Below are positions 5,113-30,598 of a stretch of DNA of 32,000 bases, piece by piece (within the stretch, counting starts at the first letter, position 1; every line of letters starts with the position of its first letter). The position numbers and the translations under genes were made by a program. Location of the stretch: positions 39,740-71,739 of the forward strand of contig SECP01000038.1 of assembly GCA_004193285.1 (NCBI GenBank), in the 5' to 3' direction. The notes under the pieces are model-generated. The model had not been told where the DNA came from, did no database searches, and worked only from the letters and a program-made list of their open reading frames with translations. The stretch is from Myxococcales bacterium. Its GTDB lineage: Bacteria > Myxococcota_A > Polyangia > Polyangiales > Polyangiaceae.

Positions 5113-5152
5113 CCGCCAAGGCGTGATGCCGCGGCTCGGATGCAGGGTGAAG

Positions 5153-5195
5153 GTCACTCCGGCGAACGACGACGCTCGCCGCGCACCGGAGTGAC
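5153..5195. terminator. Long GC-rich hairpin between convergent genes (possible bidirectional terminator)
   Basis: GTCACTCCGG (5153-5162) pairs with CCGGAGTGAC (5186-5195), with an inner GGCGA/TCGCC stem. It lies between the stop at 5112 (+) and the stop at 5210 (-). There is no U-tract. Confidence 0.35.
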
Positions 5196-5209
5196 GACGC
5201 CCGAGCGCG

Positions 5210-5890: not shown

Positions 5891-6234
5891 GAGCTCTCTC
5901 CGTTGAGGCGCTGGTGGGCTCTCGGCGCGCACGACGCTGCCGCGAGAGCCAGGCGCCAATTGCCCGCACGCAATCCTTCGGGCAGGTCAGTAACCAGCTC
6001 TCGAAGCAAACAGGCAGTGCGCGCGCTCTTCGCTTCCCTCCATACTTTTGCTCCCGCGGTCGACGCCGGTTGACGGCGCTCTGACGCGTGAGCGCGAAGG
6101 TCATGTCGGCCGCCCCTGGCCACCAGTACTCGGATGAGAGCTCGCGACCACGCCAGTCGGGCGGAGCGGCTCGGCGGAGCATGGCCGGCCCGCACCCGTC
6201 GGGTTGTCGTCCCGCTCGGCCCTATCGAGCAGTT

Positions 6235-14302: not shown

Positions 14303-15946
14303 ATGCTCGAAACGCCGCTGCGAGAGCTGCCGGTCTTGATCGTCGACTGCCAGACGACGGGCGCGTCTCCGGTGCTGGGCTCGATCTTGGAGCTCGGCTG
14401 GTGCGTTGCGCGGGCCGACGGGACCGAGCCAGAGGCGGAAGCGCATTGGATCCTCCTGCCGGAGGGCGAACGCATCTCCGCTCAAGTCCGCGCGCTCACT
14501 GGCTTTCACGAAGGCGTGCTGGAGCATGCGCTTGCGCCGGAAGACGCGTGGCGTCGCTTGCGCGCGGCGTTGCCGGTGGATAGGGCGCCGAGCGCCATCC
14601 ATTTTGCCCGGTTCGAGCTGAGCTTCCTCAAGGATTGGGCCACGCGCTTCGAGCCCGACACACCATTTCCGATCGAGGCGGTGTGCGTTCACGCCATCGC
14701 GTGCCGGCTCTACCCCGACTTGCCGCGGCGAAACCTGCGCGCGTTGGCTGGTTTCCTCGGGCATGGGCTCCACCTCGAGCGACGCTCGCTGGGTCACGTC
14801 TTGGCGACTTCCTTCATCTGGCAGAAGCTCGTCAGTGAGCTCGAGGGACGCGGCATCCGCGACTGGGCGGCGCTCGGCGCCTGGCTCGCGAGCGCGGACA
14901 AGCCGGCGACTCCACGCAAGCGTCGCTACCCCATCGCACCCGCCAGCTACCGCTCGCTGCCGGATCAATCCGGCGTTTACCGCTTCTTGCGCTCCAACGG
15001 CGACGTCCTGTACGTGGGCAAGGCGACCAGCCTGAAAAAGCGCGTCTCTTCGCACTTCACCAAGCAGAGCGGCGCTACGGAGCGCGCGCTCGAGATGCTC
15101 ACCCAGGTGAGCGACATCGCCTTTACTGCGACGAGCAGCGCTTTGGAAGCCGCGCTGCTCGAGACCCAGCTGATCAAGCAGCTCGATCCGCCTTACAATG
15201 TCCAGCTCGTGCAAGGCGAGCGGGGGGTGTGGTTCGCCTCGACGGACTTCCGCAGCGCGACGACCGAACCGGATGACCAGCACCCGTTCGGTCCTCTCTC
15301 TTCGCGCTACAGCGTGCGCGCGCTCGGCGCGCTGCGCCAGCTGCTCGCGGGCGCCGAGTCGACCGCTTCGCTTCGTGCCGCAAGCGTTGGGGCGCCGGTC
15401 CGCTTCGGACCCGAGGAGCCGGCATTCTCCGCTGGCTTCGCGCTGTTCCGAGACAAGCACGGGTCGACCGACGCCCGACTGATCGCCCGGCGCATCTTGC
15501 TCGCCTCGCCCGAGGAGCCAGAGCCGGAAGCCGCTGCCGACGACGCCCCGAAGGTTTGGGATCCACCGCGCGTGTGCCGTCACCTGGAGCGGGCCTCCGC
15601 GCAAGCGTACCAAGTTTGGCGGCGCGCCGCGTGGCTGTGCCTACTGGCAGACAGCAGTATCGCGTATCGAGAGCCAGGCGCGGCGGTCACGCGGTACCTA
15701 TCGATCGGCGCGGCGGAGCTCACCACCTCCGGCGATCTCACCGCGGACGCGCCGCTACCAGCACCGGAGCGCAGCTCGCGTCGGGTCGCTCAGCGCGCAT
15801 TCGACGCCGCACGCTACGACTGGCTGCGTATCCTCACCACCGAGCTCAAGCGCATCTTGCGCGACGGCGGCGAGGTGAAGGTCCGGCTGTCACGTACACG
15901 CCTCCTCCAAGGCGCCGCCCTCGCGCGCGTACTGCGAGTCGTGTGA
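14303..15946 (+). CDS. DnaQ-like (DEDD) exonuclease domain fused to GIY-YIG (UvrC/Cho-like) nuclease domain, plus about 250-aa uncharacterised C-terminal region
   Basis: ATG at 14303 with GAGG upstream. The N-terminus has the epsilon-like fold pattern LIVDCQTTG..ILELGW..AIHFARFELSFL..GHVLATS. The middle region GVYRFLRSNGDVLYVGKATSLKKRVSSHF..ALEAALLETQLIKQLDPPYN is the GIY-YIG signature as in the UvrC N-terminus or Cho. Confidence 0.8.
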   Translation: MLETPLRELPVLIVDCQTTGASPVLGSILELGWCVARADGTEPEAEAHWILLPEGERISAQVRALTGFHEGVLEHALAPEDAWRRLRAALPVDRAPSAIHFARFELSFLKDWATRFEPDTPFPIEAVCVHAIACRLYPDLPRRNLRALAGFLGHGLHLERRSLGHVLATSFIWQKLVSELEGRGIRDWAALGAWLASADKPATPRKRRYPIAPASYRSLPDQSGVYRFLRSNGDVLYVGKATSLKKRVSSHFTKQSGATERALEMLTQVSDIAFTATSSALEAALLETQLIKQLDPPYNVQLVQGERGVWFASTDFRSATTEPDDQHPFGPLSSRYSVRALGALRQLLAGAESTASLRAASVGAPVRFGPEEPAFSAGFALFRDKHGSTDARLIARRILLASPEEPEPEAAADDAPKVWDPPRVCRHLERASAQAYQVWRRAAWLCLLADSSIAYREPGAAVTRYLSIGAAELTTSGDLTADAPLPAPERSSRRVAQRAFDAARYDWLRILTTELKRILRDGGEVKVRLSRTRLLQGAALARVLRVV

Positions 15947-16337: not shown

Positions 16338-16493
16338 ACGTCACCTCCGCTTCCACAACGTGCATCGCGCATGCCCAATTCCCGCGCACTCCGACCGCTC
16401 CATGTGACCCTCCCGAATGTGCGGTAGCTCGATTTGCAGCCTATGCGGAAACGGCGCCGCGAACCAAAGCCGCTCGCTCGCGGAAGCCACTGT

Positions 16494-16659
16494 CCTCGGC
16501 TCGATCCCTTCTTCGGATCCGAAGGATCAACGCCCGCTCAACTCCAGGCGACACGGAACGAAAGCTCGGCGCGTCACCGCGTCGGGTTCCTCAGCGATGG
16601 CGATGGCGGAGTTGATGCCTCCTCGGCTCGATCCCTTCTTCGGATCCGTGGATCCGAAG
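16494..16659. repeat. Two copies (127-bp spacing) of an element carrying the palindrome CTTCGGATCCGAAG
   Basis: cctcggctcgatcccttcttcggatccg occurs at 16494-16521 and 16621-16648. The first has the perfect 14-bp palindrome (16511-16524). The second has CTTCGGATCC-GT-GGATCCGAAG (16638-16659). The same palindrome anchors the array at 29.0-30.0 kb. Confidence 0.9.
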
Positions 16660-16771
16660 GATGAACCCCGCTCCCACGCTCCGTGTCCGTGTCTCGAAGC
16701 GTTCAGGCCCCAGCCGCACTCGGTTTGCGCATCGCCACGCTACTGCCAGCCGCGCTTTTCCTGCCGTGCCC

Positions 16772-18378
16772 GACTTCAGCGGCTCGTTATTGCCGGTTCG
16801 CGACCCGCCCGCATACGGGCGGTTGGAGCTGAGTCGACCAACCCACGTGGGCCATGAGCTCACGTCAGCTGTTTGCGCAAGCTCCCCACGCGACTCGTTA
16901 TTGCCCTTTGCGACCTGCCCGCGCACCGGGCGGTCGAGCCGAGTCGACCAACCCACGTGGGCACCATGAGCTCACGTCGCTCTTCTCGCGAGCTCCCGCG
17001 CGACTCGTTATTGCCCTTTGCGACCTGCCCGCGCACGGGCGGTCGAGGCGAGGCGAGTCGACCAACCCACGTGGGCACCATGAGCTCACGTCAACTGTTC
17101 TCGCGAGCTCCCCGACTCGTTATTGCCGTTTGCGACCCGCCCGCGCACCGGGCGGTTCGAGCCGAGTCGACCAACCCACGTGGGCACCATGAGCTCACGT
17201 CAGCTGTTTGCCCAAGCTCCCCGCGCGACTCATCATTGCCCTTTGCGACCCTCCCGCGCACCGGCCGCTTCGAGCTGAGTCGGCCAACCCACGTGGCAAC
17301 CATGAGCTCACGTCGCTCTTCTCGCGAGCTCCCGCGCGACTCGTTTATTGCCGGTTCGCGATCCGCCCGCGCACCGGCCGCTTCGAGCTGAGGCGACCAA
17401 CCCACGTAGGCACCATGAGCTCACGTCAGCTGTTCTCGCGACCGCGCCGCGACTCGTTTTTGCCGTTTGCGACCCGCCCGCGCACCGGGCGGTCGAGCCG
17501 AATCGACCAGCCCACGTGGGCACCATGAGCTCACGTCGCTCTTCTCGCGAGCTCCCACGCGACGCGAGCTGAGGCGACCAACCCACGTGGGCACCACGAG
17601 CTCACGTCAGCTGTTCTCCCAAGCTTCAGCGGCTCGTTATTGCCGTTTGCGACCTGCCCGCATACGGGCGGTTCGAGCTGAGTCGACCAACCCACGTGGG
17701 GCATGAGCTCAGGTCAGCTGTTTGCCCAAGCTCCCCGCGCGACGCGTTATCGCCGTTTGCGACCCTCCCGCGCACCGGCCGCTTCGAGCTGAGGCGACCA
17801 ACCCACGTGGGCACCACGAGCTCACGTCAGCTGTTCTCGCAAGCTCCCCGCGACTCGTTTATTGCCGGTTCGCGATCCGCCCGCGCACCGGACCCTTCGA
17901 GCTGAGGCGACCAACCCACGTGGGCACCATGAGCTCACGTCAGCTGTTCTCGCGAGCTCCCCCGCGACTCGTTATTGCCGTTTGCGACCCGCCCGCGCAC
18001 CGGGCGGTCGAGCTGAGTCGACCAACCCACGTAGGCACCATGAGCTCACGTCAGCTGTTCTCGCGATCTCCCCGCGCGACTCGTTTTTGCCGTTTGCGAC
18101 CCGCCCGCGCACCGGGCGGTCGAGCCGAATCGACCAGCCCACGTGGGCACCATGAGCTCACGTCGCTCTTCTCGCGAGCTCCCACGCGACGCGTGCGACC
18201 TGCCCGCGCACCGGCCGCTTCGAGCCGAGTCGACCAACCCACGTCGGCACCATGAGCTCACGTCAGCTGTTTGCCCAAGCTCCCCCCGCGACTCGTTATT
18301 GCCGTTTGCGACGTGCCCGTGGGCGCGGTGTGAGCCGACTTGCCCGCGTAGGCCGCTCGTCTGACCGGCCCACGTGGA
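16772..18378. repeat. Tandem array, about 110-bp unit, 15 copies (two internally deleted), non-coding
   Basis: The core CCCACGTGGG or a 1-mismatch variant occurs at 16842, 16952, 17066, 17175, 17288, 17401, 17511, 17582, 17691, 17802, 17915, 18026, 18138, 18238 and 18369. Spacings are 109-114 bp except 71, 100 and 131. Unit consensus is roughly catGAGCTCacgtCAGCTGttctcgcGAGCTCcccgcgactcgttattgccgtttgcgacccgcccgcgcaccgggcggtcgagccgaGTCGACcaaCCCACGTGGGcac. Confidence 0.95.
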
Positions 18379-18379
18379 T

Positions 18380-18720
18380 GAAACCCAAGTCGAGGTGCAC
18401 ACGCGGCGGCTCATCCCACCCGGGGTCGCTTCAAGTCACCGGCGCACGCCGGGGCGCTTGAAGTCGATGTGACCGGTGGCGAGCTCGATCGACGCAACCA
18501 CGCGGGCGCGATTCGAATCGACCGGAGCACGGCGGGGCGCTTCGATCAACCAGCGCACGTGGGCCGGCCTTCAAGTGGACCAGGCCACGTGGGCCGGGTC
18601 CAAGTCGATGTGACCAGCGAGCCGGTCGACGGACCCACGGGTGCGATTCAAGTCTACGCGCTCATCGGCGCATCAAATCGCAGTCGCGATCGGAGTCGAG
18701 CTGCGCGTGGGCGCAAAGCG
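18380..18720. repeat. Degenerate short-period (about 25-29 bp) repeats of the array core motif
   Basis: Recurrent (c/t)tCAAGTC / tcGATC ... CACG(T/C)GGG modules start near 18386, 18432, 18460, 18486, 18514, 18543, 18572, 18601, 18624, 18649 and 18674. Examples are cttcaagtggaccaggccacgtgggccgg and cttcgatcaaccagcgcacgtgggccgg. They resemble the gaGTCGACCaaCCCACGTGGGc end of the 110-bp unit. Confidence 0.7.
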
Positions 18721-18950
18721 GGTGCGCATGCCTACGACTGTGGGTTGGCTTTGAGCCAAGCACAGGCCTCGGTGAGCACCGCGACGTTGCACATCACCTG
18801 CACGAGGTGGTGGCTTCTTCTTGGGTTTCTTCGCGCGCGCGTCGTGAAAAGCGTAAGCGAATCGTTTCAACCGAGCAGCCCCGGTCATGTCGCACAGCTA
18901 GAAGCGCGTACCGAGGACGCAACCTAGAACGAGGTTTGAGGCATGCTGTG

Positions 18951-19150
18951 CGCTCGGCGCTCGGCGCTCGGCGCTCGGCGCTCGGCGCTCGGCGCTCGGC
19001 GCTCGGCGCTCGGCGCTCGGCGCTCGGCTCTCGCCCTCGCCCTCGGCGCTGGGCTCTCGCCCTCGGCTCTCGCCCTCGGCGCTCGCCCTCGGTTCTCTGC
19101 TCTGCTCGCGGCTCCGCGCTGCTCCGCTCTCCGCTCGCCGCTCTCCGCGC
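18951..19150. repeat. Heptanucleotide microsatellite: (CGCTCGG)x11 perfect, then degenerate CTCTCGC/CCTCGGC/GCTCTCC heptamers
   Basis: Eleven perfect contiguous CGCTCGG units span 18951-19027. Pyrimidine-rich variants continue to about 19150. The overlapping ORFs are Arg/Ser/Ala repeats in all frames, so I treat them as artefacts. Confidence 0.95.
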
Positions 19151-19476
19151 TCGACTCCGCTTGGTGCGGTGGCGACGACACCGAGCGCCCGCGCCAGACC
19201 CATACGCCTCGCACCAGACGCCATGCATTTCTTTCACCTGGACGGGCAGGCCCTCGCAGTGGCGCGACCTACACGCCATTCAGCGCGAGCTACGGTCTCA
19301 ACTTCCAACCTTCCGATGTCCTGAAATCACATGTGGCCACGCGACGTGCAGCGCGAGCGTCAATCTTGTCGGCTCATGATTCTCGCCGTCGTAAAGTCAC
19401 GGGCTTTCACCTGGACGACAATCGGTACCTACAAGCCGGCACGTGAGCTTCTGCGAGTTGAGCTGCGGCGTGGCAG

Positions 19477-19497
19477 CCCGCTGCTGAGCGGGTTTTA
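19477..19497 (+). terminator. Candidate intrinsic terminator with no annotated upstream gene
   Basis: CCCGCT-gctg-AGCGGG is followed by TTTTAG. It is oriented for a + strand transcript coming out of the gene-free region. Confidence 0.4.
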
Positions 19498-19647
19498 GTC
19501 GTTTGATTCCCGGCGCTTGCAGCACTGTTGCTCCATGGCGAACGATGTTTGCCGATTTAGCCGGCTAGTTGTAACGGCCCCGCCTGACCACATTCAGTGG
19601 CGTTACTCACCAAACTCGAAACGTATCGCAAGACGGAGATTGTACAG

Positions 19648-20169
19648 ATGGCATTCAACATCGACAAGGCGCACTCGGAAGTTGGTTTTGGCGTCAAGCA
19701 CATGATGATCAGCACGGTGCGCGGCAAGTTCACGCGCTTCGACGCTGACGTTCAGCTCGACCCTGCGCATGTCGAGGCAGCCACCGTGACCGCGCGGGTG
19801 GAAGCAGGGAGCATCGACACGGGCGAAGAGAAGCGCGATGGGCACCTGCGCTCCGCGGACTTTTTCGACGCAGAAAAGTACCCAACCTTGACGTTCACCA
19901 GCACGAGCGTGAAGCGCTCGGGCGAGGACCTCGAGGTCGCCGGCAACTTGAAGATCAAGGATCAGGAGCACCCGGTTACGCTCAAGGGTGAGCTCACGGG
20001 CCCCAGCAAAGACCCTTGGGGCAACGTACGCGTGGGCCTCAGCCTGACCGGTGAGCTCGAGCGCGAGAAGTGGGGCTTGGGCTGGAACCAGGCACTGGAA
20101 GCAGGCGGCGTGCTCGTCGGCAAGAAGGTGAAGATCTCGATTGAGGCGGAGCTCGTGCAAAGCGCGTGA
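19648..20169 (+). CDS. YceI-family (polyisoprenoid-binding-like) protein
   Basis: ATG at 19648 with GACGGAG upstream. MAFNIDKAHSEVGFGVKHMMISTVRGKFTRFDADV...DTGEEKRDGHLRSADFFDAEKYPTLTFTST..L.IKD..VTL is the typical YceI signature. No signal peptide is evident. Confidence 0.85.
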   Translation: MAFNIDKAHSEVGFGVKHMMISTVRGKFTRFDADVQLDPAHVEAATVTARVEAGSIDTGEEKRDGHLRSADFFDAEKYPTLTFTSTSVKRSGEDLEVAGNLKIKDQEHPVTLKGELTGPSKDPWGNVRVGLSLTGELEREKWGLGWNQALEAGGVLVGKKVKISIEAELVQSA

Positions 20170-20203
20170 AGGGTCGAGGCTTGCCTCGGCGAGCGCGAGC
20201 TGA

Positions 20204-20246
20204 GCGGGCGCTTTCGGGTCTTCCGAAGCGCCCGCAGGCGTTTTGT
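20204..20246 (+). terminator. Candidate intrinsic terminator after the YceI gene
   Basis: GCGGGCGCTTTCGG-gtc-TTCCGAAGCGCCCGC forms a stem of about 13 bp with one bulge, followed by aggcgTTTTGTTAGGGTTTT. Confidence 0.5.
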
Positions 20247-20309
20247 TAGGGTTTTCGGTGCGTTACGGCGGTTGGTAGCGGCCCGCAGAGGTCGCCCTAT
20301 GATTCGCCG

Positions 20310-23300
20310 ATGTTGGCTTCGGAGCGCGCAAGCGCGGCCGCACACGAGTCGTGTCTGGCGCTGTTTCATCCGGCGGTGCGCGCGTGGTTCGAACGGAAGT
20401 TTCCGCATGGTCCGACCGAGGCCCAGCAGAGCGGGTGGCCGGCGATTGCGCGCGGTGAAGATACGCTGATCGCGGCGCCGACTGGCTCGGGCAAGACTTT
20501 GTCCGCCTTCCTCTTGTGCATCGATCGGCTCTACCGAGCGGCAGACCGCGGCGAGCTTCCGAACGAAGGCGTGCAAGTGGTGTACGTGTCGCCGCTCAAA
20601 GCGCTGGTCGTGGACATCCGCCAGAACCTCGAGGAGCCGCTCGAGCAAATCGCGGAGGTGGCGCGAGAGCTCGGCTACGCGGCCCCGCAGATTCGCGTGG
20701 GCGCGCGCAGCGGCGACACCCCGGCTTCGGCGCGCGTTCAACTGTTGAAGCACCCCCCGCATTTCCTCATCACCACCCCCGAGTCCTTGTACTTGATGGT
20801 GACGGCGGGAAAGAGCCGCGAGATCTTGCGGTCGGTCAAGACGGTGATCGTGGACGAAATCCATGCGGTGGCGCGAGACAAGCGCGGCTCGCACCTGGCG
20901 TTGACGTTGGAGCGGCTGGCTCACGTCGCGGAAGAGCGACCAGTACGGATTGGTCTCTCCGCGACGCAGCGGCCGCTCTCGCGCGTGGCGCGGCTGCTGG
21001 TGGGAGCGGGCGCGGAGCGCAGTACTCCGGCGGGTGAGCCCCGCTGCACCCTCGTGGACGTGGGTCACCGACGCGCGCTGGATTTGGCCATCGAGCTTCC
21101 GCTGCGTGAGCTCGACGCGGTGGCTTCCAACGAGCAGCTGGGTGAGGTTCTGGATCGCATCGCGCAGCACGTGAAGCAGCGCCGAACGACCCTGGTGTTC
21201 GTGAACACCCGGCGGCTCTCGGAGCGCCTCGCTCACTTACTGGCGGATCGAGTGGGGGCAGAGAACGTGGCCGCGCACCACGGAAGCCTCTCCAAAGATC
21301 GCCGCGCGCGCGTAGAGCAGCTGCTGCGCCAAGGCGCGTTGAAGGTGCTGGTAGCCACCGCCTCCTTGGAGCTCGGCATCGACATCGGGCCGGTGGAGCT
21401 GGTCTGCCAGGTGGGCTCGCCGCGCAGCATTGCGACCTTTTTGCAGCGCGTGGGCCGCTCCGGACACAGCCGCTTCGCGACGCCGGTCGGGCGTTTGTAC
21501 CCTTTGACGCGAGACGAGCTGGTGGAGTGCACCGCCCTGCTCCGAGCCGTGCACGGCGGCCGGCTCGACGTGCTGGAGGTGCCGGTGGCGCCGCTGGACG
21601 TGCTGGCGCAGCAGATCGTCGCGGAGGTCTCGGCGGAGGAGTGGGCGGATGGCGCGCTCTACGAGTTGGTGCGCCGCGCGGCGCCTTACGCGGAGCTCTC
21701 GCGAGAGAGCTTCGACGAGATGCTGCAGCTCGTGAGCGAGGGCATCGACACGGGGCGGGGCAAGCGCGCCGCCTTTTTGCATCGCGACCGCATCAACGGC
21801 GTTGCCAAGGCGAGGCGAGGCGCGCGCCTGGCCGCGCTCACCAGCGGCGGAGCGATCCCGGACAACGCGGACTACCGCGTGGTAGCGGAGCCCAACGACA
21901 CGTTCGTCGGCACCATCAACGAAGACTTCGCGATCGAGAGCATGGCCGGCGACGTCTTTCTGCTCGGAAGCACCAGCTGGCGAATTCGGCGGGTGGAGAG
22001 CGGCACCGTGCGGGTGGTGGACGCAGAGGGCGCGGCGCCCACGATCCCCTTCTGGCTCGGCGAGGCGCCGGCGCGCACGGCCGAGCTTTCGGCAGAGGTG
22101 TCGGCGCTGCGTAGCGGGGTGGAGCGCGCGCTGGGCAGCGGCGGTATCTCTGCCGCCTCCACGTGGGTCGCCGCGGAGGCGCGGGTAGACGAAGCGGTGG
22201 CTGACGCGGTGGTGCTGTACTTGCGGGCTTCGTGCACGGCGCTCGGGGTGCTGCCCACGCACGGCGACCTGGTGTTCGAGCGGTTCTTCGACGACTCGGG
22301 CGGGATGCAGCTCGTTTTGCACTCCCCCTATGGCGGCCGCATCAACCGCGGCTTGGGCCTCCTGCTCCGGAAGCGCTTCTGTCGCTCGTTCGATTTCGAG
22401 CTGCAAGCCGCGGCCAGCGACGACTCCATCGTGCTCTCGCTCGGTTTGCAGCACGCGTTCCCGCTCACGGACCTGCTGGACTTCCTCGCGCCGCGCGGCA
22501 TCGGAAGCGCGCTCACCCACGCGGTGCTCGTCACCCCGATGTTCGGAGTGCGCTGGCGTTGGAACTTGAATCGCTCGCTCGTCGTGCTCCGTTACCGCGG
22601 CGGTCGACGCAACCCGCCTCCGATTCAGCGAATGGAGACGGACGACGTGACGGCGGCGGTGTTCCCGTCTTTGGCCGCGTGCCAAGACAACGCCACTGGC
22701 CCTCGCGAGATTCCGGATCACCCGCTCGTGCGGCAGACGCTGCACGACTGCATGAACGAAGCCATGGACTTGGGCGGGTTGCAGCGGCTGCTCGACGCGA
22801 TTGCGAGCGAAGAAGTGCGCGTGCACTTTCGCGACACGGTCGAGCCGTCGCCGCTTTCGCACGAGATCTTGAACGCGCGCCCGTACACCTTTCTGGACGA
22901 CGCACCGCTAGAAGAGCGCCGCACGCGCGCGGTGCAGGTGAAGCGCGGACTACCGCTGGACGCGCGGGACCTGGCGAGGCTGGACCCAGAGGCGATCGCA
23001 AGGGTACGCGACGAAGCACGACCGGTGCCGCGAGACGCCGAGGAGCTGCACGACTTGCTACTCTCGTTGCTGGTGGTGAGGGCCGACCCGGCGCTTTCGG
23101 CGTTGTTCGAGGCACTGCAAGGTCGCGGGCGGGCGATCACGGTGAGGACCGCAACCGGTGACTTTTGGTGCGCGCTCGAGCTGCGGGGGGCCGTGGAGCG
23201 GCTGTGCGGCGCGGCCGAGTATCACCCGGATATTCACCCCCCGGAGCGAGCAGAAGCGGTTAGCGGGCTTGGTCGCGAAGAGCTCGCGGTGCGAGCGGTG

Positions 23301-24599
23301 CGAGGTCACTTGGAGCTCTGCGGCCCCGTGACGCCAACTGCGCTCGCGGAACGGACCGGGCTCGAGGGCGCGCTCGTGGAGCTTTCGCTCGGTCGCCTAC
23401 GCCACGAAGGCTTCGCGCTCTCCGGCTTCTTCGAAGCGAGCGTCGGCGCCGAGCAATTCTGCGCGCGCCGCTTGCTGGACCGTATCCACCGCTACACGCG
23501 CGATCGCTTACGGCGCGAAATCGAGCCCGTCTCTGCTCAGGATTTCATGCGCTTCTTGCTGGAATGGCAAGGCGTGACGCCGGGTACGCGCCGCACCGGG
23601 CCCCACGGCCTTTCCGCCGTGATCGAGCAGCTGCAAGGCTTCGAGGCCGCGGTGGCGAGCTGGGAGCACGACGTGCTGGCCGCGCGCATTGCCGGCTATC
23701 GCCCGGAGTGGCTGGACGGGCTTTGCTTCTCCGGGCAAGTCGTTTGGGGGCGCCTGAGCCCTCGGTGCGCCCCGGACCGGCCTGGCCACAGCGCGACCGT
23801 CTCCCGCGCTACGCCGGTGACGCTGGCCTTCCGCGCGGACTTGCCGTGGCTGCAGCAAGCGCTGAAATCTGGCGAAAAGCCGGCCGGGGAGCTCTCACCC
23901 GCGGCGGCGCGCCTGATCGCCTGTTTGCAACGGCGCGGCGCGCTGTTCGCCTCCGAGCTGCTGGCAGAGCTGGGCTGCGACGGACGCGAGCTGAACGACG
24001 CGCTGTGGGACGCAGTGGCACGCGGGCTGGTGACCGCAGACGGATACGGCGCGCTCCGAAGCTTGATGCGACGCCGCACCGAGCTCACGCCGCCCGCGGC
24101 ATCCTCTTTCAAGTTGCGCCGCGGCGGGCAGTCGGACATGGCGCGCGAAGGGCGCTGGGCCCTGCTGCCGGAGCAAGGCACGGAGCTCGAGCGCGACGCG
24201 CTGGCGGAGGCGGTTGCAGAGCAACTGCTGGCGCGCTGGGGCGTGGTGTTCGCGGACCTGATGGCGCGAGAGTGCCTGGCGCTTCCGTTCCGCGACATCA
24301 CCTGGGCGCTGCGCCGACTGGAGGCGCGCGGCGTGGTGCGAGGAGGGCGCTTCGTGAACGGGTTCGTCGGCGAGCAGTACGCTCTACCAGAGGCGGTGGA
24401 GCAGCTTCGGGCCGTACGGAAGACCGTCGCTCACGGCGAGGTCGTCGAGTTGTCTGCTTGCGACCCGCTGAACTTGATAGGCATCGTCCTGCCCGGGCCG
24501 CGCCTGCCGGCCCAGCGGGGCCGCATGCTGCGCCTGGTGGATGGCGCTCTAGCCCCGGAGGCGGCCGAGGTGGCGCCTCGCGCGTACGACGAAGCGTAA
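20310..24599 (+). CDS. lhr: Lhr-family large ATP-dependent DEAH-box (SF2) helicase
   Basis: A 1429-aa ORF. The N-terminus FHPAVRAWFERKFPHGPTEAQQSGWPAI..LIAAPTGSGKTL carries motif I. Also present: DEIHAV (motif II), GLSAT, VFVNTRR, HHGSLS, ATASLELGIDIG, QRVGRSGH. The long C-terminal extension is typical of Lhr. Confidence 0.9.
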   Translation: MLASERASAAAHESCLALFHPAVRAWFERKFPHGPTEAQQSGWPAIARGEDTLIAAPTGSGKTLSAFLLCIDRLYRAADRGELPNEGVQVVYVSPLKALVVDIRQNLEEPLEQIAEVARELGYAAPQIRVGARSGDTPASARVQLLKHPPHFLITTPESLYLMVTAGKSREILRSVKTVIVDEIHAVARDKRGSHLALTLERLAHVAEERPVRIGLSATQRPLSRVARLLVGAGAERSTPAGEPRCTLVDVGHRRALDLAIELPLRELDAVASNEQLGEVLDRIAQHVKQRRTTLVFVNTRRLSERLAHLLADRVGAENVAAHHGSLSKDRRARVEQLLRQGALKVLVATASLELGIDIGPVELVCQVGSPRSIATFLQRVGRSGHSRFATPVGRLYPLTRDELVECTALLRAVHGGRLDVLEVPVAPLDVLAQQIVAEVSAEEWADGALYELVRRAAPYAELSRESFDEMLQLVSEGIDTGRGKRAAFLHRDRINGVAKARRGARLAALTSGGAIPDNADYRVVAEPNDTFVGTINEDFAIESMAGDVFLLGSTSWRIRRVESGTVRVVDAEGAAPTIPFWLGEAPARTAELSAEVSALRSGVERALGSGGISAASTWVAAEARVDEAVADAVVLYLRASCTALGVLPTHGDLVFERFFDDSGGMQLVLHSPYGGRINRGLGLLLRKRFCRSFDFELQAAASDDSIVLSLGLQHAFPLTDLLDFLAPRGIGSALTHAVLVTPMFGVRWRWNLNRSLVVLRYRGGRRNPPPIQRMETDDVTAAVFPSLAACQDNATGPREIPDHPLVRQTLHDCMNEAMDLGGLQRLLDAIASEEVRVHFRDTVEPSPLSHEILNARPYTFLDDAPLEERRTRAVQVKRGLPLDARDLARLDPEAIARVRDEARPVPRDAEELHDLLLSLLVVRADPALSALFEALQGRGRAITVRTATGDFWCALELRGAVERLCGAAEYHPDIHPPERAEAVSGLGREELAVRAVRGHLELCGPVTPTALAERTGLEGALVELSLGRLRHEGFALSGFFEASVGAEQFCARRLLDRIHRYTRDRLRREIEPVSAQDFMRFLLEWQGVTPGTRRTGPHGLSAVIEQLQGFEAAVASWEHDVLAARIAGYRPEWLDGLCFSGQVVWGRLSPRCAPDRPGHSATVSRATPVTLAFRADLPWLQQALKSGEKPAGELSPAAARLIACLQRRGALFASELLAELGCDGRELNDALWDAVARGLVTADGYGALRSLMRRRTELTPPAASSFKLRRGGQSDMAREGRWALLPEQGTELERDALAEAVAEQLLARWGVVFADLMARECLALPFRDITWALRRLEARGVVRGGRFVNGFVGEQYALPEAVEQLRAVRKTVAHGEVVELSACDPLNLIGIVLPGPRLPAQRGRMLRLVDGALAPEAAEVAPRAYDEA

Positions 24600-24654
24600 A
24601 TCGCGGAGCTTTAGCCTCTTCAATTTGGCGACGGCGCGCCGTTCAGTGGGTGCG

Positions 24655-26517
24655 ATGTCAGGCGCTGCTCGCGCTCATTCAGGGAGCTTTCCCGCCCTAT
24701 CCGCGGCGGAGATCGTGCCCCAAGACCATTACGCCAGGCTGCTCGATACCAAGCGCCTCTCGGCGCTCGCCGAGACCGGCATGCTGGACTCCGAGGCCGA
24801 GGCCGCGTTCGACCGCTTCACGAGGCTGGCGGCGCGGCTCTTGAGCGTACCGACCGCTCTCATCTCGCTGGTCGACGACAAGCGCCAGTTCTTCAAGAGC
24901 CAAGTCGGTTTGGGGGAGCCCTGGTCCAGCCAGCGCGAAACTCCGCTATCCCACTCCTTCTGCCAGTACGCGGTCAGCTCCGCGAAGCCGCTCGTCGTGG
25001 CCGACGCTCGCGAGCACCCCTGGTTGAAGCACAACCTAGCGACGAGCGAGCTCGGCGTCGTTGCTTACGCGGGCGTGCCCCTCGTCACCTCCGACGAACA
25101 GGTATTGGGCGCGCTTTGCGTGCTGCAACCCGAGCCGCGAGCCTGGAGTGACGAGGAGATAGCGACTCTGCGCGACCTGGGCTCGATGACGATGACCGAG
25201 CTCGAGCTGCGCACGCAGCTGGCAAGATCGAAAGCCCTGCGCGCCGAGCGCGCCAAAGAGCGGAACCTGCTCTACGCGATCTTGGACGCCATCGACGACG
25301 CGATCGTGGTCACGCGCAGAGACGGCAAAGTCATGCTGGCGAACCCTGCCGCACGCAGGCTGCGCACCCCTGACTTGGTGGAATCCGACAGCGAAGCGCC
25401 GCCCTCCCGTGTGCTGGCGGCGGACGGTTCGGCGGCGTCCCCAGCTCAGGGCACCCCGTCGACGCGGGCCCTTCGCGGGGAGGAAGTGCGCCACGTAGAG
25501 CTGCTCGTGCGAGCGCCGGGCGAGCCCGAGGTGCACCAAAGTGTGCACGCGACGCCGCTCCGAGACGACAACGGCGAGGTGTTCGCGGCCGTCAGCGTCG
25601 GTCGGGACGTGACCAAGGCCCGCGAGATGCAAGCCGCGCTGGTGCGCAGCGAGGCCGTCCTGCAAGGGGTCGTGCGCAACCTGCCGAACGGCGCGGTCCT
25701 GCTCTTCGATCGCGACTTACGGTACGTGATGGCCGACGGCGAGCAGCTGCTGAGCAGCATCGGTCTTCGTCGGGAAGACTTGGTCGGGCGCACCTTCAGA
25801 GAAGTGAGCCGGCCCGAAGGCGCGGCGGAGGTGGAGGCGCTGTACCGAGCCGCGCTCACCGGTGAGTCGCGCATGATCGAGCTCCACCGCGCCGACAAGG
25901 TGTTCGCGCTCACGGCCACTCCCGTGCGCGACGCAGCAGGCGTGGTGACCGCCGGCCTTGCGCTTGTCTACGACGTCACGGCGCACAAGCAGGCCGAGGC
26001 GATGGTCCGCCGGGAAGCGGAGGCGATGCGCAGCCAATCCGTGCGCGACGAGCTGACCGGCTTGTACAACCGACGCGGCTTCTTGGAGCTCGCACGGCAG
26101 CACCTCTCGATAGCAGCGCAGATGGCGCGACCCGCGCTGCTCTTCTTCGTGGACCTGAACGGGATGAAGCGGATCAACGACGAGCTCGGCCACGAGACGG
26201 GTGACCGCGCGTTGAGAGAGACGGCCGAGATCTTGCGCTGCACCTTCCGCACCTCGGACATGCTCGCTCGGCTAGGAGGAGACGAGTTCGTCGCGCTGTT
26301 GATGGACGCCGACGCCAAGCAGCAAGAGGGTTTCGAAACGCGCGTTCAGCGAGAGGTGGAGGCCCGCAACGAGCAACCGGCCCGAGCCTTTCGGCTCTCC
26401 GTGAGCATCGGCGGCGCCGCATTTCAGCCTGAACGACCGCTCACCATCGAGGCGCTGCTCGCCGAGGCCGACGCGCTCATGTACGAACAGAAGCGGGCCC
26501 GCAACGCAGCGCGGTAA
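24655..26517 (+). CDS. Diguanylate cyclase with GAF, two PAS and GGDEF domains
   Basis: I prefer ATG at 24655; TTG at 24625 also lies in frame. GAF region: FDRFTRLAARLLSVPTALISLVDDKRQFFKS..FCQY..VYAGVPL. PAS segments follow. The GGDEF domain reads DELTGLYNRRGF..FVDLNGMKRINDELGH..RTSDMLARLGGDEFV, so an RxxD I-site is present. Confidence 0.9.
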   Translation: MSGAARAHSGSFPALSAAEIVPQDHYARLLDTKRLSALAETGMLDSEAEAAFDRFTRLAARLLSVPTALISLVDDKRQFFKSQVGLGEPWSSQRETPLSHSFCQYAVSSAKPLVVADAREHPWLKHNLATSELGVVAYAGVPLVTSDEQVLGALCVLQPEPRAWSDEEIATLRDLGSMTMTELELRTQLARSKALRAERAKERNLLYAILDAIDDAIVVTRRDGKVMLANPAARRLRTPDLVESDSEAPPSRVLAADGSAASPAQGTPSTRALRGEEVRHVELLVRAPGEPEVHQSVHATPLRDDNGEVFAAVSVGRDVTKAREMQAALVRSEAVLQGVVRNLPNGAVLLFDRDLRYVMADGEQLLSSIGLRREDLVGRTFREVSRPEGAAEVEALYRAALTGESRMIELHRADKVFALTATPVRDAAGVVTAGLALVYDVTAHKQAEAMVRREAEAMRSQSVRDELTGLYNRRGFLELARQHLSIAAQMARPALLFFVDLNGMKRINDELGHETGDRALRETAEILRCTFRTSDMLARLGGDEFVALLMDADAKQQEGFETRVQREVEARNEQPARAFRLSVSIGGAAFQPERPLTIEALLAEADALMYEQKRARNAAR

Positions 26518-26519
26518 GC

Positions 26520-27869
26520 TCAAGGAACCTTGGCATAGAGGGCGCGTGCGGCACGCGCGCCCCGAACGACGCGGGTCGCGACCGGCCCCTTGCCCTTGAG
26601 CTCGCGCACCTGGATGGGTCCGAGGTCGTGAGACGCGGAGAGCGAAGCCGCGAGCTCTTCCGTGACGAGCACCTCGCCGGGCGCGGCCGCGGTTTCGAGC
26701 CGGCTGGCGGTGTTCACGGCGTCGCCCCAAACGTCGTACAAGAGTCGCTCGTGACCGAGGACGCCCCCGATAGCGACCCCCCGCGCGATGCCGACTCGCA
26801 ACGACAGCGCGCGCTGCCGACGGCGTGCCACCGCGAGCACGGCGCGCTGCAGCGCGAGGCCCGCGTCGACCGCGGCCGCGGCGTCGCTCAGGTGCGCTTG
26901 CTCCATGCCGCGCGCGGCCAAGTAGGCGTCGCCCACCGTCTTGATCTTCTCGAGCCGGTGCTCGCGCATGATCTCGTCGAAGCGCGAGAACAGCTCGTTC
27001 AAAATCTCGACCATCTCCGCGGCCGGCAGCTCCGCCGCCAGGTGGGTAAAGCCTGCCAAATCCGCGAACAATATCGTCACATCGGGGTGGGTGTCCGCGA
27101 TCGGGCCGACCCCGCGCCGCAAGCGTTCGGCGATGCGCGGCGGCAGGACGGAGAACAGCACCTCTTCCGTCCGCGCGCGCTCCGCCTCCAGCTGTGCGTG
27201 CTGGCGCGCAATCGTCGCGCGTTGCCCGAAATCCCGCGCCTTGGTGGCGTAGAGCATGCGTGAGAAGAGCACGCACGTGAGCGTGAAGGCGCCGCCGTTC
27301 ACGAGCTGACTGAACGCCAGCGCCGGCCGCGGCAAGAACCAAAGCTGCCCGACGACGAAAGCAGCGAGACCCATCGCGAAGGCTTGCGCGGTCGGCCCCC
27401 GCTTGAACGTCACGAACAGCGCTGCGCACAAACCCACGAGCCAGTAAACGGTGATGCCGGCGCCGATCAGCTGATCCACGCCCGACAGCACGCCCGCCCA
27501 AACGAGTAGGAACGTGAGGAACGCGAACGCAATGCGAGCCCGCGCGACCCGCTCCCGAGCTCGCCAGAGCAGGAGCAGCGTGCTCCCGCTCGCGAGCAGC
27601 ATCGCGACATGCAAGCCCAAGAGCCAGCGCGCCCACACTCGCTCGGTCTCCGGCATTCTCGAAAAATCCAGCACCACGTCGCGCGCGAGCAGTGCAACGT
27701 GCAGCGCGAGCATCAACCAGGCGAAGCCCTTCATTCGCTCGGTCGAGCCGATCGCGAGCTCCACGTGAAACGCTCGCCTGTCCTCGCCTTGGAGAGGCTC
27801 GCCGCGCAGACCCGCCAGCGCGGCGTGTCCGAGGCGCCGCCAGGCGGCGAGGCTCGTGCGGACCGACAT
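26520..27869 (-). CDS. Membrane-anchored class III adenylate/guanylate cyclase
   Basis: I take the start at ATG 27869 (MSVRTSLAAW...). About 6 hydrophobic helices are followed by the CYCc domain: VTILFADLAGFT..FSRFD..KIKTVGDAYLAA..LRVGIARGVAIGGVLG..YDVWGDAVNTASRLE. It is convergent with the previous gene, with stops 2 bp apart. Confidence 0.85.
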   Translation of the reverse strand: MSVRTSLAAWRRLGHAALAGLRGEPLQGEDRRAFHVELAIGSTERMKGFAWLMLALHVALLARDVVLDFSRMPETERVWARWLLGLHVAMLLASGSTLLLLWRARERVARARIAFAFLTFLLVWAGVLSGVDQLIGAGITVYWLVGLCAALFVTFKRGPTAQAFAMGLAAFVVGQLWFLPRPALAFSQLVNGGAFTLTCVLFSRMLYATKARDFGQRATIARQHAQLEAERARTEEVLFSVLPPRIAERLRRGVGPIADTHPDVTILFADLAGFTHLAAELPAAEMVEILNELFSRFDEIMREHRLEKIKTVGDAYLAARGMEQAHLSDAAAAVDAGLALQRAVLAVARRRQRALSLRVGIARGVAIGGVLGHERLLYDVWGDAVNTASRLETAAAPGEVLVTEELAASLSASHDLGPIQVRELKGKGPVATRVVRGARAARALYAKVP

Positions 27870-27973
27870 GGCGACGCCAGTATGCCTCCCTCTGCGCCGC
27901 TGGAACGGGCAATTCCCGGGAATTCGCCCGGCCCGAAACATTTCGGAACGAAACCGGCCTACAAACTCGAGTC

Positions 27974-28933
27974 GTGTCCAAGCGCCGAACCGCCGCCGGC
28001 TCGCCCCCTGCGGTCCCATCGAACGGCCTGCAGCGGTGGCGGCTCCAACCCCCCAGCATCTTTTCTTACCTGGACGCAGTCGCGCACCACGGCTCAATCC
28101 GCAAAGCCGCTGACGCCCTGCACATTGCCTCATCCGCGCTCAACCGGCGGATCCTGGACCTCGAGGAGGACGTCGGCTCGCCTCTGTTCGAGCGCTTGCC
28201 ACGCGGCGTGCGCGCCACCGCCGCCGGCGAGCTCTTCCTCGCCTACGTGCGACGCTCCCTCAAGGAGCTGCGCTTGGTCGAGGCGCAGATCGACGGCCTG
28301 CGCGGCCTCGTGCGCGGGCGCGTGCACATCGCCGTCGCAGAGTCCGTCACCGGGCGCATGCTGCCGGATGCCATCGCCGAGTACCACCAGCGCCATCCGG
28401 GAGTTGGCTTCGCGGTCACGGTAGGCGGCCCACGTGAGCTCTCGGCGGCGCTCTCGCGCGACAAGGCCGATCTCATCTTAACTCACGAGAACCAGGACGA
28501 AGGCAACGTCGTCACCCTGGCCGAGGTTCCCCAGCCGCTATGCGCGCTCGTATCCCCCGAGCACCCGCTCGCGGCGCGCACCTCCTTGCGCCTGCGCGAG
28601 TGCGTCGCCTACCCCCTCGCCATGCCGGACGAGACCCTCGCCGCCCGGGCCCTCATCGAATCCGCCCTCGGCCACGCCTCGATCCGCTTCGAACCCGCGC
28701 TCGTCTCCAACTCCATCGAGACGACCAAGATGTTCGCCCGCACCTCTGGCGGCGTCTGCTTCTCCTTCAAGATCGGCAAGAAGCCGGACGTATCCGGCAT
28801 GGTGACGATTCCGCTCAGCGACCCCGTGCTCGCGGACGCCAGGCTCCGCCTATGTGGCCGCCGTGGACGCGTCCTGCCCGTCGCCGCCGCCGCCTTCGCC
28901 GAACAACTCACGGCCCTCTTCGAAGAGCTCTAA
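27974..28933 (+). CDS. LysR-family transcriptional regulator
   Basis: The HTH block reads IFSYLDAVAHHGSIRKAADALHIASSALNRRILDLEEDVGSPLFERLPRGVRATAAGE, followed by a typical LysR substrate-binding domain. There is no in-frame ATG before the HTH, so GTG at 27974 is my best guess and the start is uncertain by tens of nt. It is divergent from the cyclase gene with about 100 bp between starts. Confidence 0.82.
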   Translation: MSKRRTAAGSPPAVPSNGLQRWRLQPPSIFSYLDAVAHHGSIRKAADALHIASSALNRRILDLEEDVGSPLFERLPRGVRATAAGELFLAYVRRSLKELRLVEAQIDGLRGLVRGRVHIAVAESVTGRMLPDAIAEYHQRHPGVGFAVTVGGPRELSAALSRDKADLILTHENQDEGNVVTLAEVPQPLCALVSPEHPLAARTSLRLRECVAYPLAMPDETLAARALIESALGHASIRFEPALVSNSIETTKMFARTSGGVCFSFKIGKKPDVSGMVTIPLSDPVLADARLRLCGRRGRVLPVAAAAFAEQLTALFEEL

Positions 28934-29002
28934 ACCTCGCAACGTACCGAAAGCAGCCGACGCCAGATTCGCGGCAGCGGCTGCTGCTCCGCAGCCCGTG
29001 TG

Positions 29003-29037
29003 CTTCTCGGCTTCTCGGTTTCTTCTCGGCTTCTCGG
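29003..29037. repeat. Octamer CTTCTCGG x4 (short tandem repeat) at the left edge of the second array
   Basis: CTTCTCGG occurs at 29003, 29011, 29022 and 29030. Confidence 0.85.
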
Positions 29038-29045
29038 CTTCCTTC

Positions 29046-30050
29046 CACTGCGCCGGGGACACCCTTTCCTCACTCGATTGATTCTTCGGATCCGAAGTCT
29101 CTCGTGCCGCGGCGCGAGTCCGGATTGCAAACTCATGCGCTTCACTCAACCGAGGCACGTCTGACGGACACTTCGGATTCGAAGAACCATCCCAGCCGCA
29201 ACACCCCTCCTCCGCGGCTCGAAGCAGAGACTCTCGGCGGCACGCGGTGCCGCGGCAAACGGCTGGCCGACTTCCGCCGGCGCCGGGGACACCCTTTCCT
29301 CACTCGATTGATTCTTCGGATCCGAAGTCTCTCCTGCCGCGGTGCGAGTCCGGATTGCAAACTCATGCGCTTCACTCGACCGAGGCACGTCTGACGGACA
29401 CTTCGGATTCGAAGAACCATCCCAGCCGCAATACCCCTCCTCCGCGGCTCGAAGCAGAGACTCTCGGCGGCATGCGGTGCCGGGCAAACTGCTGGCCGAC
29501 TTCCGCCGGCGCCGGGGACACCCTTTCCTCACTCGATTGATTCTTCGGATCCGAAGTCTCTCGTGCCGCGGCGCGAGTCGGGGCCGCAAACTCATGCGCT
29601 TCGCCCAACCGAGTCGGGTCTGACGGACACTTCGGATTCGAAGAACCGTCCGAGCCGCGAGAGCCCTCCCCTCGCGTCGAAGCAAAAATTCTCGGCGGCG
29701 CGCGTTGCTGGCAAACGGCGGCCGACGTCCGCGGCGCTCGGGACACCCTTTCCTCACTCGATTGATTCTTCGGATCCGAAGTCTCTCGTGCCGCGGCGCG
29801 AGTCCGGGCCGCAAACTCATGCGCTTCACTCAACCGAGGCGCCTCTGACGGACACTTCGGATTCGAAGAACCATCCGAGCCGCGAGAGCCCTCGTCCGCG
29901 TGTCGGGCGGCGTGGCGAGTGCGGATTGCAAACGTGATGAGCTTCGCTCAACCGAGTCGGGTCTGACGGACACTTCGGATTCGAAGAAGCATTGGAGCCG
30001 CAAGAGTCCTCCCCGCGTGTCGGGCGGCGCTGCGAACGCGGGCCGCAACA
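29046..30050. repeat. Tandem array, about 220-240-bp unit x4 plus about 1.5 extra half-units, non-coding
   Basis: The perfect palindrome CTTCGGATCCGAAG occurs at 29084, 29324, 29543 and 29768. The near-palindrome CTTCGGATTCGAAG occurs at 29171, 29401, 29630, 29855 and 29973. Units begin ggggacaccctttcctcactcgattgatt and are near-identical, with scattered substitutions and 1-bp indels. Confidence 0.95.
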
Positions 30051-30181
30051 ATCTCGAAGGTATTTGGAAACAGTCAACGCGGACTAAAGAGGCGGCGGGC
30101 AGGGCGGCGACTTCTCTGCGCGCGCGGAAAGAGCTGACAGAGCGGAGAGCCAGGTGCTGCGTGCGTCCATCGGCGGCGGAT

Positions 30182-30310
30182 GGAGAGCGGAGAGCGAAGA
30201 GAGCGGAGAGCAGGCGGGGCGAAGAGCGGAGAGCGGAGAGCAGACAGGGCGAAGAGCGAAGAGCGGAGAGCAGACAGACAGGGCGGAGAGCGGAGAGCGG
30301 AGAGCAGACA
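30182..30310. repeat. Purine-rich heptamer repeats (GGAGAGC / GAAGAGC) in triplet blocks separated by AGACAGGGC-like spacers
   Basis: ggagagcggagagcgaagaga..gaagagcggagagcggagagcagacagggcgaagagcgaagagcggagagcagacagacagggcggagagcggagagcggagagcagacagggggg. GGAGAGC is the complement of the GCTCTCC heptamers at 19.1 kb. Confidence 0.9.
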
Positions 30311-30562
30311 GGGGGGAAGAGAAGAAGCGTGTGGGGGCGCGGGGTGAAAGTCTGGGGGGCACGCGGGTGTGGTCGGCGGGATCGTGAGCGAGCGGATTTG
30401 GAGCGCGGGCTGTACGTGGATTGGCGCTGGTCGCCAACGCAGTGTGGGCGTAGACGACTAGCGTAGTGATTTTTGCACTCTGCCACTGCGGGCAGAGACC
30501 TTCTGACGCGAATCACGCCGACAACTAACGAAAACGCTTCCGAAACAATCGCGAAGCGGGAG

Positions 30563-30576
30563 CGCGCACGTGCGCG
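30563..30576. promoter_or_regulatory. Perfect 14-bp palindrome CGCGCACGTGCGCG just upstream of the permease SD (candidate operator)
   Basis: It is self-complementary over 14 nt. It ends 9 nt before GGAGG (30586-30590) and 22 nt before the ATG at 30599. Confidence 0.3.
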
Positions 30577-30598
30577 GTGTGAACCGGAGGACAACAAG

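Follow-up and report, generated by a model that had tools for sequence, protein, structure and literature searches.

A non-coding array of hairpin-forming repeats, absent from relatives, between a LysR-type regulator gene and a purine permease gene in an uncultured Polyangiaceae bacterium

The 32,000-nucleotide stretch of DNA analyzed here (Myxococcales bacterium of the Polyangiaceae, GenBank assembly GCA_004193285.1, contig SECP01000038.1, positions 39,740 to 71,739 of the forward strand; called the window below, with position 1 at its first letter) carries a block of tandem repeats built around short palindromes, lying between a LysR-type regulator gene and the gene for an AzgA-type purine permease. 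The block, at 28934-30386, is probably a lineage-specific, non-coding minisatellite of hairpin-forming repeats, selfish or neutral DNA in a dispensable spacer. Of the options offered by an earlier, sequence-only reading of the region, that of a selfish repeat fits best.

The gene-free gap between the LysR stop and the permease start runs from 28934 to 30598 (1665 bp), in agreement with the 1.7-kb gap without genes that had been described there. Its core is a tandem array with four near-identical units, likewise described earlier and recovered by both Tandem Repeats Finder (TRF) and a repeat search. TRF reports one array at 29050-29900 with a period of 230, 3.7 copies, 91% matches and a score of 1378, that is, a head-to-tail unit of more than 10 bp without coding capacity, as in a minisatellite. 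In the repeat search, four 203-nt copies start at 29050, 29280, 29509 and 29734 and show 76-98% identity to the first, while an 86-nt sub-unit is present five times, at spacings of 230, 229, 225 and 118. From left to right, the block is made up as follows:

28934-29001, + strand: unique spacer directly after the LysR stop, the left edge of the lineage-specific insertion
29002-29041, + strand: octamer microsatellite (GCTTCTCG)n, period 8, 4.6 copies (TRF)
29050-29279, + strand: full unit 1, 230 bp (repeat search, TRF, alignment)
29280-29508, + strand: full unit 2, 229 bp, 98% identical to unit 1
29509-29733, + strand: full unit 3, 225 bp
29734-29899, + strand: unit 4, with the A-B hairpin module described below present and the distal spacer of about 60 nt, with its GC hairpin, missing
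29900-30016, + strand: half unit 5, 118-bp period, with only the near-palindrome B
about 30017-30100, + strand: decayed half unit 6, palindrome B lost
30182-30321, + strand: purine-rich microsatellite block, (GGAGAGC)n nested in 30-34-bp repeats (TRF, repeat search)
30346-30366, + strand: unit-spacer remnant, GAAAGTCTGGGGGGCACGCGG against GAGACTCTCGGCGGCACGCGG, 81%, marking the decayed right end of the repeat block

Half unit 5 shows 79-81% identity to the corresponding half of units 1-4 (nhmmer E = 2.7e-25; nhmmer searches were run with --max), and the terminal half-unit duplication that had been read from the sequence, with palindrome B at 29855 and 29973, 118 bp apart, is indeed there; it is followed by a decayed sixth copy, the first 36 nt of which (30013-30048) match the beginning of half unit 5 at 81% identity. 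Along the array, pairwise identity is 97% between units 1 and 2 and 92% between units 3 and 4; it drops to about 80% in half unit 5 and to about 50-74% at the two edges, where the left-edge block has 71-74% identity to the spacer parts of units 1-3. As far as can be judged by reading the sequence, the octamer (GCTTCTCG)n seems to have expanded from the CTCTCGGC segment belonging to a first unit now decayed, and both flanking microsatellites (29002-29041 and 30182-30321) look like expanded unit segments; since they do, and since a remnant follows at 30346-30366, the whole insertion reads as one array with decayed ends. The (GGAGAGC)n block is also the reverse complement of a heptamer block at 19053-19152, in a second insertion taken up below (blastn, 30283-30305 vs 19148-19126, 96%). 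The GC content of the array is 0.64-0.65 vs 0.67-0.70 in its flanks, so that the lower value claimed for it holds in direction, but the difference is slight rather than visible. A 230-bp unit that arose as a diverged dimer of a proto-unit of about 115 bp was ruled out; the two halves have only the palindrome in common.

Two palindromes, A and B, recur through the array, and each forms the center of a longer arm:

29084-29097, 29314-29327, 29543-29556 and 29768-29781: perfect 14-nt palindrome A, CTTCGGATCCGAAG
29171-29184, 29401-29414, 29630-29643, 29855-29868 and 29973-29986: near-palindrome B (one mismatch), CTTCGGATTCGAAG
29073-29195: A-B hairpin module of unit 1, with arm A at 29073-29101, a 65-nt interior, and arm B, inverted, at 29167-29195
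29303-29425, 29532-29654 and 29757-29879: equivalent A-B modules
29237-29253: GC hairpin GCGGCAC-GCG-GTGCCGC, perfect in unit 1 only

The positions found for A give spacings of 230, 229 and 225, and the values of 240, 219 and 225 in the sequence-only reading are wrong; its spacings for B (230, 229 and 225) match the positions 29171, 29401, 29630 and 29855. Nor does every unit contain the GC hairpin, as had been stated: it is intact in unit 1, has two mismatches in unit 2 (29467-29483) and more than three in unit 3, and is absent from unit 4. The palindrome is matched 10 times in the window, the tenth time at 16511, against an expectation of 0.00 from 100 shuffles.

In all four full units, the two 29-nt arms face each other in inverted orientation across 65 nt, with 79-87% complementarity; each arm is centered on CTTCGGAT(C/T)CGAAG, and the whole module measures about 123 nt. 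In the predicted RNA fold, CTCGATTGATTCTTCGGATCCGAAGTCTC of one arm pairs with GACACTTCGGATTCGAAGAACCATCCGAG of the other in a 17-bp helix with a branched interior cap. On the + strand the modules fold at -53 to -63 kcal/mol with z-scores of -4.1 to -6.7, and the - strand folds about equally well (z -3.3 to -4.7); the A-B helix differs between the strands only in one G-U pair of the + strand, the counterpart of which on the - strand is a C-A mismatch. The arms are also the best preserved part of the unit, with 2 variable columns out of 58 vs 37 out of 172 in the rest (Fisher p = 5e-4, from 4-5 non-independent copies), and the longest invariant run, 48 nt, spans arm A, a length reached in 17 of 10,000 shuffles. 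This conservation may reflect a functional or mobilization-related constraint.

Comparison with relatives marks the block as an insertion. Six distinct relative lineages (nine contigs, with a permease 91-97% identical) keep LysR followed by the permease, and neither the unit nor the palindrome was found in their LysR-permease gaps, which have the following lengths (names such as L008 are our handles for relatives):

L008/L009: 298 bp
L010/L011: 399 bp
L012-L014: 247 bp
L061: 211 bp
L062: 225 bp
a Joint Genome Institute (JGI) contig without DNA: 192 bp

The window loses its homology to L008 at the LysR stop, 28933, and regains it at 30387, with 1453 nt here replacing 87 nt there. The site of variation is bounded exactly by the LysR stop on one side and a conserved leader of the permease gene on the other, and it holds from 0 to about 190 nt in the relatives; the leader itself, where homology to all relatives restarts, is intact in the window. 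In the same LysR-permease spacer, L010 carries an unrelated MITE-like (miniature inverted-repeat transposable element) sequence of 163 nt (5619-5781) with 40-nt terminal inverted repeats (83% complementary), and a second copy of it, with an internal (GGAGAGAAGGTG)n expansion, lies downstream of the permease (7852-8047). Hairpin elements therefore do disperse into the spacers of this clade. The sequence-only reading had held that the repeat would be no more than a hypervariable, junk variable-number tandem repeat (VNTR) if strain comparison showed the palindromes not to be conserved: within the array they are conserved preferentially, as the column counts above show; between lineages, the array as a whole lacks conservation.

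The array does not encode a protein. GC content at codon positions 1, 2 and 3 in the array is 0.65, 0.63 and 0.65, and the array and all long open reading frames (ORFs) across it are flat at 0.58-0.69 in all three positions, with position 3 at 0.63-0.66; in the Lhr, LysR and permease genes of this window (67% GC), position 3 reaches 0.84-0.87 and position 2 falls to 0.46-0.50. No Pfam match was found for the ORFs across the array, a six-frame pseudo-protein of one unit matched nothing among 5.8 billion proteins, and an exhaustive HMMER search of 1.84 billion representatives gave no real protein relative of a 227-aa ORF; the two weak matches of that ORF were to Ig/FN3-repeat proteins, with a short SDP-containing motif common by chance. 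The non-coding reading proposed earlier stands, but not the statement that every reading frame is broken between units: the periods of 230 and 229 are not multiples of 3 and shift the frame, and that of 225, from unit 3 to unit 4, keeps it, still without a coding signal. A tandem-repeat protein or small ORF is thus ruled out by the flat codon-position GC, the frame shifts and the absence of Pfam or protein homologs. All five copies retain a 9-codon ORF (ATG ... TGA, M-R/S-F-T/A-Q-P-R/S-H/R-V/L; 29135-29164 and equivalents). This ORF lacks a Shine-Dalgarno-like sequence and differs between copies mostly by non-synonymous changes; the conserved CTCATGCGCTT and TCTGACGG blocks probably give rise to it as a by-product.

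Nor does the block resemble a known RNA. Rfam 15 gives no match in the window at the gathering score, and at E up to 10 the sole match has 10.5 bits (noise) against a gathering score of 108, so the unit does not match a described RNA family, an outcome that the sequence-only reading had counted as a refutation. ARAGORN detects no tRNA or tmRNA in the window, and neither sigma-70-like promoters nor intrinsic terminators were found inside the units; a sigma-54 -24/-12 motif considered near the TTGCA of units 1, 2 and 5 does not fit when checked by eye. Compensatory changes occur in none of 43 predicted pairs, the copies being too similar to decide. A CRISPR array was likewise rejected: the whole 230-bp unit repeats, the sequence between the palindromes is 76-98% identical, and there is no cas-like gene in the window. 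A dedicated function is disfavored because the array is absent from all relatives, lacks promoter and terminator signals and shows no covariation; together with the empty Rfam search, these results leave the DNA- or RNA-level function for which the sequence-only reading had spoken without support.

The module has the architecture of a doublet of REP (repetitive extragenic palindromic) sequences, a REPIN, or of a small MITE. The closest known system is the tandem REPIN clusters of Pseudomonas fluorescens SBW25, ordered clusters of near-identical REP doublets repeated together with their flanking sequence, the largest of which consists of four REPINs and one extra REP over more than 700 bp (Bertels and Rainey 2011, PMC3116915). 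The array here, with four doublets and one extra B arm in about 1 kb, is like them in having two short inverted palindromic sequences and a spacer, a predicted long hairpin, an extragenic position, and arms better conserved than the spacer. It is unlike them in its 230-bp unit and 65-nt interior, next-neighbor REP distances in SBW25 being 71 or 110 bp (PMC3116915), and also in its perfect 14-nt dyad, its host (an uncultured Polyangiaceae/Myxococcales bacterium represented by a metagenome-assembled genome, MAG) and its occurrence at two loci in about 47 kb. Set against the definitions, a short palindrome of the REP kind (about 20-40 nt) is present as a 14-nt dyad within a conserved arm of 23-29 nt, although in typical REPs the dyad is longer and less perfect; two inverted REP-like sequences with a spacer that folds to a hairpin occur in all four full units; and the excess of conservation in the arms over the spacer is that of REPINs.

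Other systems share parts of this anatomy. E. coli BIME-2 (bacterial interspersed mosaic element) arrays consist of alternating Y and Z2 REPs, head-to-tail, and vary in copy number; their units measure about 40 nt, have short, defined linkers and serve as binding sites for gyrase or IHF (integration host factor). Like them, the present array has head-to-tail palindromic units of alternating orientation between co-directional genes; there is no sequence similarity, however, and its period is about five times longer. MITEs and ERIC- or Correia-type elements are imperfect palindromes of 100-200 nt, with which the module of about 123 nt between inverted arms of about 29 nt has in common an intergenic position and the capacity to fold as RNA or DNA; the 29-nt arms bound it as the terminal inverted repeats of a MITE bound a short non-coding element, and the 163-nt element of L010 provides an example within the clade. 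Unlike MITEs, the copies here are tandem rather than dispersed and have no recognizable target-site duplication. No parent insertion sequence with matching ends is known, and no insertion sequence lies in the window. MIRU (mycobacterial interspersed repetitive unit) of Mycobacterium and VNTR-105 and VNTR-141 of Wolbachia are non-coding bacterial minisatellites used as VNTR markers; these too are intergenic head-to-tail repeats of 50-150 bp or more with internal hairpins, non-coding, and different in presence or copy number between lineages, although they bear no sequence relation to the array.

A three-step origin would account for these features. The first step may have been that a non-autonomous hairpin element, whose family would be private to this uncultured Polyangiaceae/Myxococcales lineage, landed or arose in the spacer. 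Slipped-strand mispairing or unequal recombination would then have amplified the element and its flank head-to-tail, the most recent duplication presumably being that of units 1 and 2 (97-98% identity), and finally the array edges would have decayed and sprouted microsatellites. Any effect on the cell would be a by-product: read-through from LysR would give an RNA helix of 17-25 bp per module, which could act as a barrier to 3' exonucleases, cause transcription to pause or terminate, or recruit RNase III. Such effects are those proposed for REP and BIME elements. If this reading is true, uncultured Polyangiaceae hold REPIN- or MITE-like hairpin repeats that can balloon into kilobase arrays in dispensable spacers. 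Such arrays would serve as sensitive strain markers, and they yield long spurious ORFs in high-GC genomes (227-318 aa here). They open no new biological question, tandem hairpin-repeat clusters having been described since 2011, and nothing points to a dedicated function.

Several observations weigh against a mobile hairpin element that has turned into a selfish or neutral minisatellite. No homologous unit came to light outside the window. The element core TTCTTCGGATCCGAAGKMTC has five single matches in 596 Gb of species-representative genomes, in unrelated taxa and with an estimated four or so expected by chance; TTCTTCGRATCCGAAGKNTC has 44 single matches in JGI metagenome contigs, none extending beyond the pattern by blastn or nhmmer, and two in viral contigs, which do not extend beyond it either; plasmid and phage collections gave no match. 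These external scans require an exact 20-nt core, and short-read MAGs are often without such repeats. A further 15 kb or so of the same genome, reached via the Logan contigs L007 and L063, holds no additional palindrome copy, and outside the array there are only two copies of the palindrome element in about 47 kb (the window plus these extensions). There is no transposase or RAYT (REP-associated tyrosine transposase) gene among the genes of the window, and a search for direct repeats by reading found no target-site duplication at either the module or the whole insertion. The conservation of the arms is ambiguous, in that it could equally mean host function or gene conversion. According to PMC3733652, the stem-loop of a REP has a GTAG or CGTC tag, unpaired, at one of its ends. 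Neither GTAG nor CTAC stands beside either arm when the arms are read against that description; a GACG does precede arm B on the + strand, but read on the - strand this CGTC would follow the stem at its 3' end, where a REP tag does not belong, and the stems measure 5-6 bp rather than 8-9 bp. With the tag absent and no RAYT in the window, membership in a REP/REPIN family is not established. True REP and REPIN families are usually far denser in a genome than two loci in about 47 kb. Finally, an independent Logan assembly made from the same reads (SRR6998475) is interrupted at either edge of the repeat block, so that it does not confirm the array interior: its contigs are 100% identical to the window at 1-2415, at 19075-29079 and from 30318 on, and three of their four ends (2415, 19075, 29079 and 30318) fall at repeat blocks.

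Four other explanations were set against these data, in falling order of likelihood a local VNTR, an array of functional RNAs, an array of operator sites, and an assembly artifact of copy number. The first holds that a palindrome-bearing spacer was simply duplicated in place by slippage or unequal recombination, with no mobile ancestry, the palindrome copies near 16.5 kb being coincidental or due to local gene conversion. Much of what has just been listed speaks for it, namely the lack of a homologous unit outside the window, the restriction of the palindrome to two loci, and the lack of a nearby transposase and of a target-site duplication, and the pattern of identity along the array is typical of VNTRs. 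A purely local origin nevertheless seems possible rather than likely: a palindrome core of 16-20 nt recurs in a separate insertion 12.5 kb away, inverted doublets with selectively conserved arms are not expected of random spacer DNA, and L010 has a dispersed element with terminal inverted repeats in the very same spacer. Somewhat more doubtful is the idea that the arms are under selection, either in an undescribed REPIN-like mobile family, private to an uncultured Polyangiaceae lineage, moved by a transposase and outside the cataloged phyla and tag classes, or in an RNA that is bound or processed and modulates the permease.

An array of functional RNAs, whether paralogs of a small RNA, a structured 3' untranslated region of LysR, or a long 5' leader of the permease that regulates through the A-B helices, would be in keeping with the common + strand of array and flanking genes, with an A-B stem that is a perfect 17 bp with one G-U on that strand and has a C-A mismatch on the other, with the significant stability of the folds and with the conserved arms. 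It is quite improbable all the same: no unit has a promoter- or terminator-like site, Rfam is silent even at E up to 10, compensatory change was seen at 0 of 43 pairs, the - strand folds about as well, and the relatives keep the gene pair without the array, their conserved leader starting downstream of the array position. The dyad CTTCGGAT(C/T)CGAAG might instead be bound by a dimeric protein, nine sites in 1 kb then making a regulatory platform, a titration sink or a nucleoid anchor. The dyad is perfect or near-perfect and invariant in 9/9 array copies, and it recurs, perfect, at 16511 upstream of a small gene, beside an extended variant at about 16638. Yet the 48 invariant nt around A exceed the dyad and fit an element arm better, the relatives lack the sites at both loci, and the window has no lineage-specific candidate for a binding protein. 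LysR-type regulators recognize a T-N11-A box, and the dyad, as checked by reading the sequence, is T-N10-A. Operator sites are very unlikely.

That the repeat is real and its tandem order or copy number was invented or collapsed by the metagenome assembler is the least probable of these: the source is a short-read MAG contig and the Logan assembly of the same run halts at 29079 and restarts at 30318, but neighboring differences between the units are never more than about 55 nt apart, so that long k-mers and read pairs can order them, both edges are 100% identical to the independent contigs, and the graded decay toward the edges is biologically coherent. Because of the breaks at both repeat edges, the number and order of the copies inside the array are as given by the MAG assembler only, and the stops of the Logan contigs illustrate how repeat arrays fragment short-read assemblies.

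A second lineage-specific insertion in the window, 3134 nt at 16383-19516, lies 12.5 kb from the array and replaces 63 nt of L008. It contains the only other copies of the palindrome element in the 47 kb or so covered, bringing the total to eleven palindromes at two intergenic loci, along with repeats of other kinds:

16495-16670: two further palindrome-element copies (CCTCGGCTCGATCCCTTCTTCGGATCCGAAGGAT), in a 127-bp direct repeat (20 nt, 95%)
16779-18319: 113-bp array, about 14 copies, also periodic at the higher orders of 224 and 335
18320-18700: CCACGTGGGC-containing repeats
18950-19152: (GCGCTCG)n/(GCTCTCC)n microsatellite

The two copies share with the array the palindrome core of 16-20 nt plus 20-30 nt of flank, with a looser likeness over about 15 nt upstream (CCTC..CTCGAT). 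In the first, the perfect palindrome stands at 16511, upstream of the small gene; in the second (16622-16670, with its palindrome at about 16638), the center CTTCGGATCCGAAG is extended to CTTCGGATCC-GT-GGATCCGAAG, a change of the kind expected of hairpin-templated repair or template switching. The 113-bp array is presumably the one that the sequence-only reading took as the first of two; kinship between it and the array at 29050 was considered and rejected, only the palindrome (upstream of the 113-bp array) and the heptamer microsatellite being common to both. Edge segments of both insertions recur in non-syntenic intergenic DNA of L010, with 28964-28998 being 86% identical to L010 8135-8169 and 19416-19479 corresponding to L010 7670-7779 (35-53 nt, 82-86% identical over all), and this suggests, from sequence likeness, further families of dispersed intergenic repeats in the clade. 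At about 19475-19500 there is a terminator-like hairpin with a T-run, and the unique spacer at 28934-29001 contains a short GC hairpin, GGCTGC-TGCTCC-GCAGCC. The gene at 14303-15946, some 440 bp upstream of the second insertion, encodes a 547-aa protein with a GIY-YIG nuclease domain.

The genes and the leader that flank the array, which is co-directional with them, are as follows:

27974-28933, + strand: LysR-type regulator gene
30387-30598, + strand: conserved promoter/leader of the permease gene, about 210 nt, a boundary feature outside the array
from 30599, + strand: AzgA-type adenine/guanine/hypoxanthine (purine) permease gene

The permease protein is 100% identical to RYZ04009.1 of a 'Myxococcales bacterium' MAG. 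Its leader of about 210 nt is kept across relatives (L008 6239-6449, L010 5805-6000, L012 5810-6000, L061 275-485 and L062 3574-3798), with the recurring blocks TTGGCGCT, GTAGTGATT..TTGCGC, GCGAATCACGCC and CGAAAACGCTTCCGAAACA; 4 of 37 pairs are predicted to covary, there is no Rfam match, and it is a possible candidate for an uncharacterized regulatory leader or promoter region. Between the Lhr and LysR genes of the window lie a GAF-PAS-GGDEF gene and an adjacent adenylate/guanylate cyclase gene (24625-27869). Both are missing in L008 and L010, where Lhr is directly followed by LysR, and the GGDEF gene is found in L062; gene content at this locus is therefore variable too. Elsewhere in the window, a 15-nt in-frame tandem repeat, GCCGCCTTGGCCGAA, is present in 7.4 copies at 5249-5442, inside overlapping long ORFs (5140-6182) without a Pfam match, and it may represent either a low-complexity repeat protein or another non-coding repeat.

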